Notes under the pieces: generated by a model
Databases searched by the model: none
What the model was told of the DNA's origin: nothing
The model's input: only the letters and a program-made list of their open reading frames with translations
DNA from: Patescibacteria group bacterium
Lineage (GTDB): Bacteria > Patescibacteriota > Patescibacteriia > SG8-24 > DYFX01
Direction: 5' to 3'
Assembly: GCA_038062835.1 (NCBI GenBank)
Contig: JBBTWH010000001.1
Coordinates: forward strand, 42,982 to 106,981
DNA: 64,000 nucleotides
Translations under genes and position numbers: made by a program
Shown: positions 1 through 14,731 of the stretch, in pieces
Layout: every line of letters begins with the position of its first letter
Numbering within the stretch: the stretch's first letter is position 1

Positions 1-357
1 TCGTCGGAGTGGTACAACCGCATCATCGACACCGCGGACGTAGAGGCCGACTGGGATTGGACCCGGCCGCTCCGTCGCAAGGACAAGATCAAGAGCCGTA
101 CTATCGTCATCGGGCTGAACGGCGCCGCCGATCCCGAGAACGATCCGCCCGTCCCAGGCGAGGGCAGCTGCGTGCTGTTCCATCTCGAACGCAAAGGCCG
201 TCCGACCGTAGGCTGCACTTCGCTCGCCGAATCCCGCCTCGACTCGCTCGTCGCGTGGCTCGTCCCGAAGTCGAAGCCGGTCTACATCCTGATGACGCGC
301 GCGCAGTACGAGGAGCTTGCGTCGCTCGATGACGCGGACCTGCCCGAGCTTCCGTAA
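1..357 (+). CDS. 3' end of hypothetical protein (partial, runs off window start)
   Basis: Frame 1 is open from nt 1 to a TAA at 355-357, and an intrinsic terminator hairpin follows. Confidence 0.4.
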   Translation, partial: SSEWYNRIIDTADVEADWDWTRPLRRKDKIKSRTIVIGLNGAADPENDPPVPGEGSCVLFHLERKGRPTVGCTSLAESRLDSLVAWLVPKSKPVYILMTRAQYEELASLDDADLPELP

Positions 358-364
358 ACGAAAC

Positions 365-394
365 GACCCCGACGTAACGTCGGGGCCGTTTTTT
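365..394 (+). terminator. rho-independent terminator (ccccgacg-taac-cgtcgggg + T6)
   Basis: A GC-rich inverted repeat followed by TTTTTT is seen in the sequence. Confidence 0.5.
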
Positions 395-431: not shown

Positions 432-1109
432 TTACTTCTTTTTCTTGGCGGCGGCCTTCTTGGCCGGAGCCTTGGAGGCTTTCGCGGGCTTCTCGGCGAC
501 CACGGCCTTTTCGGCCTTCGGAGCGGCGGCCTTCTCGGCCTTCACCGGTTCCGCGGCGGACGTCTTCGCCGGAGCGGAGAGGTTCATCGCCTTGATGATC
601 ATGTCGAGCTTCGCGTTGATGGCGGCGAACTGCTCCTTGGAGCGGTCCTCGGCCGGGGCCGCGCGCTTGAACTCCTTATAGTCCGTCGCGCCGGCTTTCT
701 CGTTGCCGAAGCAGGCACGGCAGTACACCGGCTTGCTGCCGTTCGGCTTGAACGGCACTTCGCAGCCGTTTCCGCACGAGGCGCACGTCGCCTTGAAGAG
801 CTGCTTCTCCTCGCGATCGAACCCGCGGTCATCGCGGCGCGGCGCGGAGTCGCGGTCGAAGCGCATCGGCGCGGACGACGTATCTCCGTCCTTCTTGAAG
901 CACTCGCGGCAGTAGATCGGCCGGCTGCCGTTCGGCTTGAACGGCACTTCGCAGCCGTTTCCGCAGGTGGCGCAGGTGGCCTGATGCATCTGCGGGCGGT
1001 CGAACCCGCGGTCGTCGCGGCGATTGAAGCTTCCGCCTCCGCCGAACTTGCGGTCATTGCCGCCCTTCCATCCGCCCCCCTGGGGTCGGGTACCATTAGA
1101 CTTGTACAT
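432..1109 (-). CDS. tandem-duplicated zinc-ribbon protein with Gly/Arg-rich N-terminus and Lys/Ala-rich histone-H1-like C-terminal tail
   Basis: ATG is preceded by AAGGAGG. Two roughly 45-aa repeats each carry a CxxC-(17)-CxxC element (CATCGNGCEVPFKPNGSRPIYCRECF). The C-terminus reads AEKAAAPKAEK...KKAAAKKKK. Confidence 0.7.
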   Translation of the reverse strand: MYKSNGTRPQGGGWKGGNDRKFGGGGSFNRRDDRGFDRPQMHQATCATCGNGCEVPFKPNGSRPIYCRECFKKDGDTSSAPMRFDRDSAPRRDDRGFDREEKQLFKATCASCGNGCEVPFKPNGSKPVYCRACFGNEKAGATDYKEFKRAAPAEDRSKEQFAAINAKLDMIIKAMNLSAPAKTSAAEPVKAEKAAAPKAEKAVVAEKPAKASKAPAKKAAAKKKK

Positions 1110-1147
1110 TTTTTCCTTTATTTTGCCTCCTTATTGAAGACATCGCA

Positions 1148-1192
1148 GTATAGCCCAAATCCGGGAAAAATGCAAGGGGGCTATGGTAGAAT
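1148..1192. promoter_or_regulatory. divergent promoter region, with TATACT (-10) for the minus-strand gene and TGgTAGAAT extended -10 for the plus-strand gene
   Basis: The minus strand reads ggGCTATACTgcg and the plus strand reads ctaTGgTAGAATcg. Both lie upstream of SD-bearing starts. Confidence 0.35.
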
Positions 1193-1215: not shown

Positions 1216-1569
1216 AGGAACGCCATGGATGAGCCTCAGACGCCCATCACCCTGACCGATGCGGCGGCCGCGAAACTCATCGAGTTCCGCGACGCGGATG
1301 AGAAGACGCGCGGCAAGCCGCTCCGCCTCGCCGTCCAAGGCGGCGGGTGCGCCGGCTTCAACCAGGTGCTCTACTTCGACGATCCAAAGCCGGACATCGA
1401 CCAGGTCTTCGACATCAAGGGCCTCACCGTCCTCGTCGATTCGATGAGCCTGATGTACCTCGCGGGCACCGAGCTCGACTACGTCGACGGCCTGAACGGC
1501 ACTGGCTTCACGTTCAACAACCCGAACGTGAAGTCCACCTGCGGTTGCGGCAGCTCCTTCTCGCCATAG
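1216..1569 (+). CDS. HesB/IscA-family iron-sulfur cluster insertion protein (ErpA/SufA-like)
   Basis: GGAGG lies 7 nt upstream. The protein ends in CGCGSSF, with a conserved Cys in the LAVQGGGCAGF motif. It is about 117 aa. Confidence 0.8.
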   Translation, partial: RNAMDEPQTPITLTDAAAAKLIEFRDADEKTRGKPLRLAVQGGGCAGFNQVLYFDDPKPDIDQVFDIKGLTVLVDSMSLMYLAGTELDYVDGLNGTGFTFNNPNVKSTCGCGSSFSP

Positions 1570-1650: not shown

Positions 1651-2553
1651 TCATCGCTTTGCGCCCTTGCAGTCGGGGCAGTCCACCTCGCGCTTCGCCT
1701 TGTAGGTCTCCTCCTTCTTGCCGTGGCACATGCAGCAGGCGAACTGGCCGTTCTTGACGGCGTCGTTCGCCTCTCCCCAATCCCGTCCGGCTCCGATCTT
1801 CTTCGTTCCGCTGCCGCCGCAGAAATCGCACGGCGGCCAACCTTCGAGTTCTTGCTCGCTCTGCGGAGGATTGGGCATCGACATCTTCCCCGTGCCGCCG
1901 CAGTGATGGCAGGGGTCCGTCCCGCTGCCCTTGCAGTGCGTGCATTTGACGGTCGCCTCGTATTCCTGCTCGATCTTGCCGCTGCCGCCGCAGCGCGCGC
2001 ACGGCTTCTTTTCCTCCGCCTTCGTCCCGCCGCCGCAGCGGCCGCACTTCCCGCTCTTCTTTTCCCGCATCCGTTTCACCCACTCCCAAAGGCCGAGGAG
2101 GGCGAGCATCGTGCCGATGGTCCAGGCGGCTGTTTCGAGTATCGGCTGAAGCGAGTCCGGGGCGTATTCGGACGTCTCTTCAAGGAATTCCTGGGCGTTC
2201 TCGAGGGGGAACTCTTCCGGTTCCGCCGCCGCGCTCGCGTCAGGCATCGGGATGTTCGGCGTCGGCGGAGCCGAGGGTGCCGGGAAGGCCGACTGCTCGG
2301 ACGGCGCAGTCGCCGTGGACGTTTCCGGCTCCGCGGCCGTATCCGACGGTTCAGTCGCGCTGATGGCGGCCGGAGTCTCTGCGTTTTCCCTGCCGCAGCC
2401 CCAGTGGTCGCCGCCGGTCGGGATGCACATCACGCCGTACCCCGTCGGACATTCGAGCGCCGGCTTGGCCTGTTCGTCGCAATTAACGGCGGCGAAAGCC
2501 GTCCCCGGGAGGAGCGCGAGCGCGAAGGAAATCGAGACGAGGAATCTCTTCAT
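1651..2553 (-). CDS. membrane-anchored DnaJ-type (CxxCxGxG x6) zinc-finger protein without J domain
   Basis: Signal peptide MKRFLVSISFALALLPGTAFA, a Cys-rich ectodomain, a TM helix (WTIGTMLALLGLWEWV), then six CxxCxGxG repeats. TGaTATAAT lies 13 nt upstream of the ATG. Alternative start at 2565. Confidence 0.6.
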   Translation of the reverse strand: MKRFLVSISFALALLPGTAFAAVNCDEQAKPALECPTGYGVMCIPTGGDHWGCGRENAETPAAISATEPSDTAAEPETSTATAPSEQSAFPAPSAPPTPNIPMPDASAAAEPEEFPLENAQEFLEETSEYAPDSLQPILETAAWTIGTMLALLGLWEWVKRMREKKSGKCGRCGGGTKAEEKKPCARCGGSGKIEQEYEATVKCTHCKGSGTDPCHHCGGTGKMSMPNPPQSEQELEGWPPCDFCGGSGTKKIGAGRDWGEANDAVKNGQFACCMCHGKKEETYKAKREVDCPDCKGAKR

Positions 2554-2628
2554 ATCAGAGGTCATTATATCAATATCAGCCGTTTCTGCTATACTGGAGG
2601 TGTTTAACTATATAGCGATACGCGAGGT

Positions 2629-2781
2629 ATGGAGAACCAGCCCGTGACCGTAAAGACGAGGACGAGCATCTCGACCAGGACGAAAGTCATCGTGGCCCTG
2701 GCGCTCATCACCGGGGCGGTCATCGCCTACGCCGTAGTGGTGGCGCGCGTTCCAGGCCGATCGATATCGATTCCGGCGTAG
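2629..2781 (+). CDS. small single-TM protein, 'MENQP' paralog 1 (50 aa)
   Basis: MENQPVTVKTRTSISTRTKVIVALALITGAVIAYAVVVARVPGRSISIPA. This is one of three paralogous mini-ORFs with conserved upstream sequence (TGcTATACTGGAGGTG). Confidence 0.5.
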   Translation: MENQPVTVKTRTSISTRTKVIVALALITGAVIAYAVVVARVPGRSISIPA

Positions 2782-2832
2782 GACTGCCTTAGACGGGACT
2801 GTAAGTATCTAACCGAAGAATCACCGCAAGGT

Positions 2833-2997
2833 ATGGAGAACCAGCCCGTGGTCACGAAGACGAAAACGCGCGTCGCGACGCGAACGAAAGTCATCGTCGC
2901 TTTGGCGCTGCTCGCCGCGGCCGTCGTCGCCTACGCCGTCGCCAGCACGGTGAGCCTGAAAGCGCGACGCCCAGGAGATTGGAGCGTCCGCGGCTGA
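2833..2997 (+). CDS. small single-TM protein, 'MENQP' paralog 2 (54 aa)
   Basis: MENQPVVTKTKTRVATRTKVIVALALLAAAVVAYAVASTVSLKARRPGDWSVRG. The N-terminal 35 aa are conserved with paralogs 1 and 3. Confidence 0.5.
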   Translation: MENQPVVTKTKTRVATRTKVIVALALLAAAVVAYAVASTVSLKARRPGDWSVRG

Positions 2998-3056
2998 CGT
3001 CCGCGCTCCAAGAACGGAAAACCCGCCGGTGCTCGGCGGGTTTTCTTCGTTAGACT

Positions 3057-3383
3057 TCAGCCGCGCATCGCCAGGACGACGAAGAGCAGGACCGTGAAGG
3101 CCGCGAGCTGGCCGATGGTGCAGACGACCATCATGACGCCCTCGCGCTTCTTGCCGTCGATATAGAGCATGAGCGGCTTGCCGAAGATGAGCATGCACAT
3201 CGTCGCGGCGGACGTCACGAGCAGCAAAAGGAATCCGACGGGGGCGAGGGCGCTATCCGGCTTACCGTCCCCATCGCCGAAGATCCTCTCGATGTTCTGC
3301 ATGACCGTCCCCACGGCCGCGACATAGAGGATTGCGCCGGCGGAATAGGGCAGGCTTCGCTTGAAGGTCTTCATGTCGAGCAT
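3057..3383 (-). CDS. small integral membrane protein (3 predicted TM segments)
   Basis: 108-aa ORF with hydrophobic segments, lying between the MENQP paralogs. Confidence 0.45.
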   Translation of the reverse strand: MLDMKTFKRSLPYSAGAILYVAAVGTVMQNIERIFGDGDGKPDSALAPVGFLLLLVTSAATMCMLIFGKPLMLYIDGKKREGVMMVVCTIGQLAAFTVLLFVVLAMRG

Positions 3384-3830: not shown

Positions 3831-3989
3831 ATGGAGAATCAGCCCTTCGCGGTAAAAACGAAGACGCGCATCTCGACCAAGACGAAGGTCGTCGTCGCCC
3901 TGGCGCTCATCACCGGGGCCGTCATCGCCTACGCCGTCGCGGTCGAGATCAAGGCGCGGCGACCCGGAGATTGGTCCATCAGCTCCTGA
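3831..3989 (+). CDS. small single-TM protein, 'MENQP' paralog 3 (52 aa)
   Basis: MENQPFAVKTKTRISTKTKVVVALALITGAVIAYAVAVEIKARRPGDWSISS. cgCTATACTGAAGGTG lies 31 nt upstream. Confidence 0.5.
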   Translation: MENQPFAVKTKTRISTKTKVVVALALITGAVIAYAVAVEIKARRPGDWSISS

Positions 3990-14643: not shown

Positions 14644-14731
14644 GGAGGGGTCGCATAGTGGTCGAGTGCGCTCGCTTGGAAAGCGAGTATACCGCAAGGT
14701 ATCGGGAGTTCGAATCTCCCCTCCTCCGCCA
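14644..14731 (+). tRNA. tRNA-Ser(GGA), type II with long variable arm
   Basis: Acceptor GGAGGGG/CTCCTCC, anticodon arm CTCGC-TTGGAAA-GCGAG, T-arm GGGAG-TTCGAAT-CTCCC, discriminator G and an encoded CCA. Confidence 0.9.

Follow-up and report, generated by a model that had tools for sequence, protein, structure and literature searches.

A tandem zinc-finger protein found across Patescibacteria, with Gly/Arg-rich spacers and a Lys-rich tail: a tentative nucleic-acid binder

A 64,000-nucleotide (nt) stretch of contig JBBTWH010000001.1, from a Patescibacteria group bacterium, carries on its minus strand a gene for a 225-amino-acid (aa) protein that is a member of the zinc-finger family PF23477/TIGR04272; every defining feature of this family that could be tested was found in it. 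The full stretch is called the window below, and the coordinates of the gene (432-1109) and its features follow the numbering of the window. The protein strings two predicted zinc fingers along disordered segments and ends in a helix and a Lys-rich tail. We tentatively favour the reading that it is a stand-alone, zinc-dependent, multivalent nucleic-acid binder, likelier to be associated with RNA or the ribosome than with the nucleoid. A previous sequence-only reading of this DNA had delimited the open reading frame (ORF) exactly, and its other proposals are taken up below.

Two treble clef-like fingers in tandem

Both halves of the core of the protein match curated hidden Markov models (HMMs). 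Pfam PF23477 (zf_Tbcl_2, 'probable treble clef zinc finger') matched in two stretches with 111.7 bits against a cut-off of 27 (E 1.2e-32), and NCBIfam TIGR04272 (CxxC-x17-CxxC domain) likewise in two stretches with 111.9 bits against a cut-off of 36 (E 8e-33). The predicted zinc ligands are C46, C49, C67 and C70 in the first CxxC-x17-CxxC unit (900-974) and C109, C112, C130 and C133 in the second (711-785). Only 41 of 100,000 composition-preserving shuffles contained one or more such motifs and, as both units also match the curated HMMs at E ~1e-32, a chance origin of the motifs is excluded.

The single-finger AlphaFold2 (AF2) model has a predicted local distance difference test score (pLDDT) of 82.4, with strands at residues 7-11 and 17-20 and a helix at residues 33-40 that starts at the second CxxC. 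The first CxxC thus lies on a beta-hairpin and the second at the start of a helix, an arrangement with which the full-length AF2 model agrees. The finger therefore models as treble clef-like, not as a classical two-hairpin zinc ribbon: the tandem CxxC-x17-CxxC motifs of the sequence-only reading are present and HMM-matched, while the ribbon fold that it assigned to them is not what the models predict. In the full-length model, order is limited to the two fingers and the helix, with a predicted template modelling score (pTM) of 0.24 and no inter-domain packing.

We aligned 24 and 95 homologues, with identity down to ~37%. Invariant in each finger across the 95 are the four ligand cysteines together with P56, F57, P59 and F71. 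A fifth cysteine (C53, C116) extends the motif of each finger to C-x2-C-x3-C-x13-C-x2-C and is kept in 185 of 190 Patescibacterial units, as well as in 119 of 120 one-finger proteins from archaea and Omnitrophota; it may serve as part of the core, as an alternative ligand or as a redox site.

The internal duplication of roughly 45 aa that had been proposed is borne out, and is visible in the DNA as well. Residues 29-76 align with residues 89-139 over 48-51 aa with a period of 63 aa, 34 of 48 positions being identical, and the lead-in RRDDRGFDR is the same in both copies. Besides the finger-core repeat listed in Table 1, a second DNA segment (802-839 versus 985-1022) is 84% identical between the copies. 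Only three of the 24 codons that encode the same residue in both copies differ synonymously, and such near-identical repeat DNA hints at, and fits, either strong codon bias (63.5% GC) or some intragenic gene conversion. The fingers are hardly differentiated, with identities between proteins of 0.63 for finger 1 versus finger 1, 0.61 for finger 2 versus finger 2 and 0.57 for finger 1 versus finger 2; the duplication itself is old, and both copies are under equal constraint.

Disordered segments, helix and tail

Residues 1-39 comprise 11 Gly (28%) and nine Lys/Arg (15% Arg) with a net charge of +5, including two RG dipeptides. The N-terminus had been called RGG-like: it is rich in Gly and Arg as claimed, but a literal RGG triplet is absent from it. 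The one ordered element apart from the fingers, the predicted helix, is well conserved. Its motif is present in 89 of the 95 homologues, with K167 invariant and N165, L168, D169 and L175 each conserved in at least 90%. Because its hydrophobic residues are spaced 3-4-3-4 (a heptad pattern), the helix (aa 155-175) suggests a short coiled coil, that is, a putative dimerisation or docking helix.

Beyond the helix, residues 179-225 contain 14 Lys, 18 Ala and five Pro (net +10), and the whole protein carries a net charge of about +20. In this protein, then, the histone H1-like KAAK character that had been ascribed to the tail is accurate, down to its KKKK end. As a family trait it does not hold: the Ala/Pro flavour is no family constant, and about 11 of the 89 homologous tails are neutral or acidic.

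Architecture and distribution of the family

The aligned homologues show one conserved order of elements, consisting of a Gly/Arg N-terminus, finger 1, linker, finger 2, a variable spacer, the helix and a Lys-rich tail. The disordered N-terminal regions have medians of 28% Gly, 15% Arg and three RG/RGG motifs, and some homologues contain clear RGGF/GGFGGR runs; the linker between the fingers is a mixed-charge segment of Arg, Asp, Gly and Ser. Finger number varies among homologues (two, three or four), with an RGG/FGG, RD or SR-rich spacer ahead of each finger. The median net charge of the whole protein is +18. The tails have a median length of 47 aa, with 32% Lys, no Arg and a net charge of +9, and end in a Lys/Arg cluster in 68 of 89 cases. 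The Ala/Pro-rich 'H1' flavour belongs to the high-GC members, while low-GC members have Lys/Val/Glu tails. The neutral or acidic tails reach a net charge of -22 (e.g. P0043, P0114), so the tail cannot be central to what the protein does.

When 1.84 billion cluster representatives (50% identity) were searched with a profile, 6949, 4259 and 505 matched at E<=1e-3, 1e-10 and 1e-30, respectively. The best 150 representatives, among which the conserved architecture predominates, are 168-339 aa long and matched over their full length without fusions; nor were domain fusions present among the best 120 matches of each word-indexed search, and co-matches to PF14599 proved to be additional finger copies in proteins with three or four fingers. 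Relatives are encoded in at least 593 stretches when each GTDB species is represented by one genome. Record titles among the matches listed name Paceibacterota, Uhr-, Magasanik-, Falkow-, Komeili-, Buchanan-, Collier-, Peregrini-, Peri-, Gracili- and Saccharibacteria, and WS6. Dozens of Patescibacteria-like loci stand in third-party annotation (TPA) assemblies that bear the title 'uncultured Gammaproteobacteria' or 'Pseudomonadales'; judged by locus content and the small contigs, these titles are probably placeholder or erroneous taxonomy from mislabelled bins. An origin in defence systems or phages was rejected, with no PADLOC match, one weak PHROG of unknown function and seven loci in 2.9 million viral contigs. 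No entry in the transposon-sequencing (Tn-seq) and annotation supplements to the Southlakia study could be mapped to the finger family.

Archaeal matches were confined to the finger region, and the tandem architecture with helix and long Lys-rich tail is, as seen here, essentially restricted to Patescibacteria. A finger-only profile retrieved 1252 proteins, the best 120 of which are 45-73 aa long, come from DPANN, Bathyarchaeota, Woesearchaeota and Omnitrophota, and consist of a Gly/Arg N-terminus, a single finger and a short Lys/Arg tail. NCBI and JGI records give many one-finger relatives of 45-70 aa (e.g. P0122, P0127, P0136, P0183) the name 'DNA-directed RNA polymerase', probably a propagated misannotation, since these proteins have no detectable similarity to RpoP/Rpb12 models. 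In Woesearchaeota loci L094-L098 (~2524-3159), the genes for two PF23477 proteins of 123 and 52 aa are neighbours and lie downstream of a gene for the tRNA dihydrouridine synthase Dus, so adjacent finger-family paralogues are possible in archaeal genomes.

Recurrent gene neighbours

To describe gene neighbourhoods, ORFs within four genes on either side of the finger gene were clustered across 67 species-level loci (49 clusters at 50% identity), and NCBIfam confirmed what the recurrent families are. Individual loci differ widely in gene content. The families that recur are an ABC-F ATPase (14 of 67 loci, 10 of 49 clusters), RecQ (10 loci, always on the same strand, and eight clusters), TypA/BipA (seven loci, six clusters) and YihA/YsxC (five loci, two clusters). 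At least one of ABC-F, TypA/BipA and YsxC is found in 19 loci, or 12 clusters. A recurring order, namely ABC-F, the finger gene, YsxC or BipA, and then RecQ, was seen in loci labelled Saccharibacteria, Komeilibacteria, Paceibacterota, Minisyncoccales, Peregrinibacteria and others. Random gene placement predicts 0.4-1.8 loci per neighbour family, and rough binomial P values range from 1e-5 to 1e-12 for ABC-F, RecQ and TypA/BipA, though not for YsxC, among loci that are phylogenetically non-independent. None of the ribosomal-protein gene families was a neighbour in three or more of the 67 loci, and the neighbourhoods of the archaeal one-finger relatives were uninformative. A general functional link to IscA, whose gene lies beside the finger gene in the window, was rejected, as this adjacency is limited to the lineage of the window and does not recur across the 67 loci.

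A possible mechanism and its alternatives

In the mechanism that we propose, each unit of ~37 aa would fold round one Zn(Cys)4 site as a small treble-clef finger, and the fingers, strung along disordered Gly/Arg/Asp segments, would make weak but specific contacts. The heptad helix would pair two chains or dock the molecule, and the Lys-rich tail, together with the Gly/Arg spacers, would supply non-specific electrostatic avidity for a polyanion. The likeliest target would be RNA, in which case the protein might serve Patescibacteria as a general RNA chaperone, a ribosome-assembly factor or a ribosome-associated factor. We favour RNA because the spacers resemble glycine/arginine-rich (GAR), RD and SR regions, because the tail, which is the most DNA-like feature of the protein, is dispensable in part of the family, and because three of the four top neighbour families (ABC-F, TypA/BipA and YsxC) act on the ribosome. 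That the protein binds nucleic acid, prefers RNA, dimerises by way of its helix or has any link to the ribosome is what we infer from these patterns. The sequence-only reading had offered a nucleoid or RNA-binding type of protein, and with its two predicted Zn(Cys)4 fingers, Gly/Arg disorder, Lys-rich tail and high net charge the protein does look like one. The choice of target stays two-way: the ribosome-factor neighbours and the GAR-like regions of homologues make us lean to the RNA side, while DNA stays a live option in view of the Lys-rich tail and of RecQ as a neighbour.

Several observations weigh against an RNA- or ribosome-associated binder. The 225-aa protein itself lacks an RGG triplet, and Lys/Ala/Pro tails are classically DNA-binding. 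Adjacency to the recurrent neighbours is loose, with gaps of 36-300 nt, strands that are sometimes opposite and no overlapping starts, so these are not tight operons, and the signal could reflect synteny of housekeeping genes kept by descent and no functional link. Most loci, moreover, have none of ABC-F, BipA, YsxC or RecQ as neighbours. RecQ, a DNA helicase, is a neighbour about as often as the ribosome factors, always on the same strand; on the window's own contig it lies three genes downstream, beyond the left edge of the window, and it is downstream in a 66%-identical relative too. Foldseek searches of the PDB with the full-length and single-finger models gave nothing below E 0.4, the matches being generic Zn(Cys)4 sites only (PHD, Fur/PerR, MCM, eS27, YacG and LIM), and searches of PDB sequences, whether with the protein or with a finger profile built from 65 sequences, gave nothing below E 0.1. 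The only experiment that we found for the family is zinc binding by small archaeal relatives.

Some of the same observations favour a nucleoid-associated DNA binder resembling linker histones, in which tail and fingers would coat or bridge chromosomal DNA and the helix would dimerise to bridge duplexes. We regard this main alternative, which the sequence-only reading had named first, as possible, though unlikely. The tail, at net +10 with KKAAAKKKK (family median 32% Lys and net +9, with a Lys/Arg end in 68 of 89), suits such a role, as does the recurrence of RecQ on the same strand (10 of 67 loci, eight of 49 clusters) and downstream in the contig and in relatives; a seemingly independent transcription unit is also typical of abundant architectural proteins. 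Yet the tail is neutral or strongly acidic in about 11 of 89 homologues, its Ala/Pro richness is tied to high-GC members whereas low-GC tails are of the Lys/Val/Glu kind, and neither Pfam nor NCBIfam reveals a DNA-architectural domain, be it a winged helix, HU, a histone fold or any other. The ribosome factors among the neighbours and the spacers of Gly/Arg and Arg/Asp type also point away from the nucleoid. Very improbable, in our estimation, is a lineage-specific ribosomal protein that replaces ribosomal proteins missing from Patescibacteria. The finger protein is small, very basic, predicted to bind zinc and widespread in the phylum, and the ribosome-factor neighbours would fit; the number of fingers, however, ranges from two to four, tail length and charge vary widely, the context of a ribosomal-protein operon does not recur (no such family in three or more loci), and no ribosomal-protein HMM matches.

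The remaining alternatives look beyond binding to RNA or DNA. That the protein binds other proteins to regulate the transcription machinery, for instance as an RNA polymerase-binding factor, seems improbable to us. Its cysteine spacing, which is DksA/TFIIB-like, is the same as that of the DksA/TraR finger (PROSITE PS01102), and archaeal RNA polymerase subunit P (9bct_P) is a weak structural neighbour, but this match (E 3.4) is non-significant and no Pfam or NCBIfam model of DksA/TraR, TFIIB, RpoP/Rpb12 or any RNA polymerase subunit matched at E<=1. The N-terminus, disordered in the AF2 model, contains no DksA-type coiled-coil domain. A role in transcription is, in addition, the starting hypothesis offered by the authors of the one study of the family that we found (PMC12704099), and some one-finger archaeal relatives bear the polymerase name in NCBI and JGI; the eight Methanosarcina mazei paralogues of that study (PMC12704099) are nevertheless ill-suited to a core polymerase subunit. 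A metal or redox role of the five-cysteine unit, with zinc buffering or storage, redox switching or an Fe-S site in place of a purely structural zinc site, is quite improbable as well. It would account for the fifth cysteine (kept in 185 of 190 Patescibacterial units and in 119 of 120 small proteins), and would sit well with the divergent IscA-type neighbour, which is two genes off in a 60%-identical relative, with a weak Pfam match to Molybdop_Fe4S4 (E 0.041) and with the oxidised cysteines found in M. mazei by top-down proteomics (PMC12704099). Against it, the purified M. mazei relatives contain zinc according to mass spectrometry with an inductively coupled plasma (ICP-MS), IscA does not recur across the 67 loci, the Molybdop_Fe4S4 match is far below threshold, and the long basic disordered regions and variable finger number would be left unexplained.

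The RNA- or ribosome-associated binder can also be given a bolder form, decidedly speculative and rather unlikely as a whole: an ancient Gly/Arg-rich zinc-finger RNA chaperone of ultrasmall prokaryotes (Patescibacteria, DPANN and other archaea, and Omnitrophota) that in Patescibacteria was duplicated and acquired a dimerisation helix and a polycationic tail. It might there act in large-subunit assembly or ribosome rescue with ABC-F, BipA and YsxC, the fifth cysteine adding redox or metal sensing.

The gene and its surroundings

NCBI/ENA already lists a 100% identical protein under the name 'CxxC-x17-CxxC domain-containing protein [Patescibacteria group bacterium]', from groundwater metagenome contigs labelled Hain_H41. 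No second copy (paralogue) of the gene was found elsewhere in the 64-kb window. Features of the gene and its product are collected in Table 1.

Table 1. Features of the finger gene and its product, in window numbering
Feature	Position	Strand	Basis and remarks
Coding sequence, 225 aa + stop	432..1109	minus	ORF list; ATG start, TAA at 432-434
Gly/Arg-rich N-terminus, aa 1-39	993..1109	minus	predicted disordered; AF2 pLDDT 43-55
Zinc finger 1, aa 40-76	882..992	minus	HMM stretch 40-73; AF2 pLDDT 83-89, beta-hairpin then helix
Mixed-charge Arg/Asp linker, aa 77-102	804..881	minus	net charge 0; second RRDDRGFDR; AF2 pLDDT <50
Zinc finger 2, aa 103-139	693..803	minus	HMM match; AF2 pLDDT 82-87
Variable spacer between finger 2 and helix, aa 140-154	648..692	minus	poor conservation in alignments; low pLDDT
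Amphipathic helix, aa 155-175	585..647	minus	AF2 pLDDT ~87; consensus EQFxxLNAKLDxILKAL
Lys/Ala/Pro-rich disordered tail, aa 176-225	435..584	minus	AF2 pLDDT <55; KKKK end
DNA repeat copy A, finger 2 core	708..793	minus	87% identity to 897-982, perfect ~44-nt run
DNA repeat copy B, finger 1 core	897..982	minus	pairs with 708-793
Putative ribosome-binding region	1114..1132	minus	by-eye reading of sequence
Promoter-like TTGCAT (1170-1175), 17-nt spacer, TATACT (1147-1152)	1147..1175	minus	by eye
GC-rich hairpin, 8-bp stem	367..385		between convergent genes; terminator call on + strand only

The expression signals are less clear-cut than had been suggested. A strong Shine-Dalgarno sequence, AAGGAGG (1126-1132), is indeed present, but it lies 16 nt from the ATG, a long spacing, and only a weaker AAGGA (1114-1118) is found at 4-5 nt. 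As for the divergent promoter, TTGCAT-17-TATACT can be discerned by eye within the 115-bp divergent intergenic region and is a candidate promoter of the finger gene; it matches eight of 12 consensus positions and scores below the scan threshold, and the promoter scan around the gene made no call. The hairpin at 367-385 may act as a bidirectional terminator that also serves the minus-strand finger gene. Together with the divergent neighbour, these signals make the finger gene look like its own transcription unit. Searches with Rfam revealed no RNA elements near it, the sole match in the window being tRNA-Ser (14644-14731).

The divergent neighbour (1225-1569, plus strand) is of the IscA/HesB type (PF01521, E 2e-22), as the sequence-only reading had recognised. 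The convergent neighbour (1-357, plus strand) belongs to a 249-aa protein that runs past the left edge of the window (L001 8629-9378) and has no Pfam match; it is kept beside the finger gene in the 66%-identical relative (L100 3626-4375). Further along, a minus-strand gene (1651-2565) encodes a 304-aa protein with a hydrophobic N-terminus and a C-terminal half dense in CxxCxGxG-type motifs, in the style of DnaJ or anti-TRAP zinc fingers, whose sole Pfam match is a sub-threshold one to Anti-TRAP (E 0.004). Three paralogous plus-strand ORFs of 50-54 aa (2629-2781, 2833-2997 and 3831-3989) share the start MENQP..VKTKTR.S(T)xTKV.VALAL..AV.AYAV and one predicted transmembrane helix each, with no Pfam match; they have the look of very small membrane proteins that form a tandem family.

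Significance

As a database finding the protein is not new, its domain being curated and an identical protein named in NCBI. The family had been described as uncharacterised, which holds for its function; the domain, by contrast, is curated under two accessions, the protein has been deposited and named, and zinc binding by archaeal members is published. Our literature searches with the names, accessions and motif of the family returned the M. mazei paper only, and those combining Patescibacteria with ribosome or nucleoid returned nothing relevant. What this analysis adds is the Patescibacteria-wide architecture, the one-finger versions in archaea and Omnitrophota, the near-invariant fifth cysteine, the treble-clef model and the recurrence of ABC-F, TypA/BipA, YsxC and RecQ as neighbours.

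Much of bacterial diversity belongs to the Patescibacteria, whose genomes are stripped down, and a protein that most of their classes conserve is a candidate for biology that is core to them but has gone unrecognised. The finger family is abundant, with thousands of matching sequence clusters, and its architecture is distinctive. Assigning its function to RNA, ribosome or DNA would annotate thousands of 'domain-containing' proteins, and the finger family could reveal how nucleic acids are chaperoned in ultrasmall cells. Its architecture, fifth cysteine and ribosome-factor neighbourhood make it a reasonable experimental target, if no great surprise to specialists.

Comparison with known systems

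The closest known proteins are small ones from Methanosarcina mazei, eight of which carry the PF23477/TIGR04272 domain (PMC12704099). Two of them, A00184 and A01980, whose purification included a heparin step, were found by ICP-MS to bind zinc, while a role in transcription is only speculated on by the authors, who also report one-finger relatives in Methanosarcina as robustly detected small proteins (PMC12704099). The likeness of A00184 and A01980 to our protein is one of domain family. The best one-finger relatives from archaea and Omnitrophota are 50-71% identical to finger 1 and share the fifth cysteine, the Gly/Arg N-terminus and a short basic tail; with 45-73 aa and one finger, the archaeal proteins nonetheless differ from the 225-aa tandem protein and its additional helix and long Lys-rich tail.

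The C4 finger of DksA/TraR has the spacing CxxC-x17-CxxC (PROSITE PS01102). The cysteine spacing of the protein described here is identical to that of DksA/TraR (PF01258), and both are small bacterial zinc modules. However, neither PF01258 nor an NCBIfam DksA model matched at E<=1, the N-terminal coiled coil with its acidic tip is absent, the sole helix in the AF2 model being C-terminal to the fingers, and the 225-aa protein has a VPFKPxGxKPVYC loop and a fifth cysteine. YacG was rejected for want of a Pfam match, the Foldseek matches to 1lv3 (E 3.8 and 5.9) being non-significant. Likewise, the zinc ribosomal proteins bL31, bL32, bL33, bL36, uS14 and bS18 were rejected, with no Pfam or NCBIfam match at E<=1, the PDB profile search yielding chance matches to eS26 only (E 0.9), and so was RpoP/Rpb12, which had no Pfam or NCBIfam match and a Foldseek E of 3.4 (9bct_P). 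Thus membership in a ribosomal-protein or DksA/YacG-type family, which the sequence-only reading had named as the finding that would overturn it, did not emerge from Pfam or NCBIfam at E<=1.

Linker histone-like Lys/Ala/Pro tails are found in bacteria in chlamydial Hc1, mycobacterial HupB/MDP1 and AlgP. The likeness of our protein to these is one of tail composition only, (KAE/PAK)n followed by KKAAAKKKK at net +10. It differs from the Hc1/HupB type in having no HU, H1 winged-helix or Hc1 domain, its ordered parts being fingers and helix, and a minority of the finger family has an acidic tail or none.

A further parallel is eukaryotic. In plant cold-shock (CSP) and glycine-rich (GRP) proteins, CCHC knuckles stand between Gly-rich spacers, and nucleolar proteins have GAR/RGG domains. 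The knuckles are CCHC whereas the finger described here is a C4 treble clef, and the finger protein has neither a cold-shock domain nor an RNA recognition motif (RRM); the resemblance is one of analogy, not homology. Even so, both consist of small zinc modules, variable in number, that alternate with disordered Gly/Arg spacers, and if the finger family does descend from an ancient RNA chaperone, it would be a prokaryotic counterpart of the eukaryotic GAR-domain and zinc-knuckle RNA chaperones.

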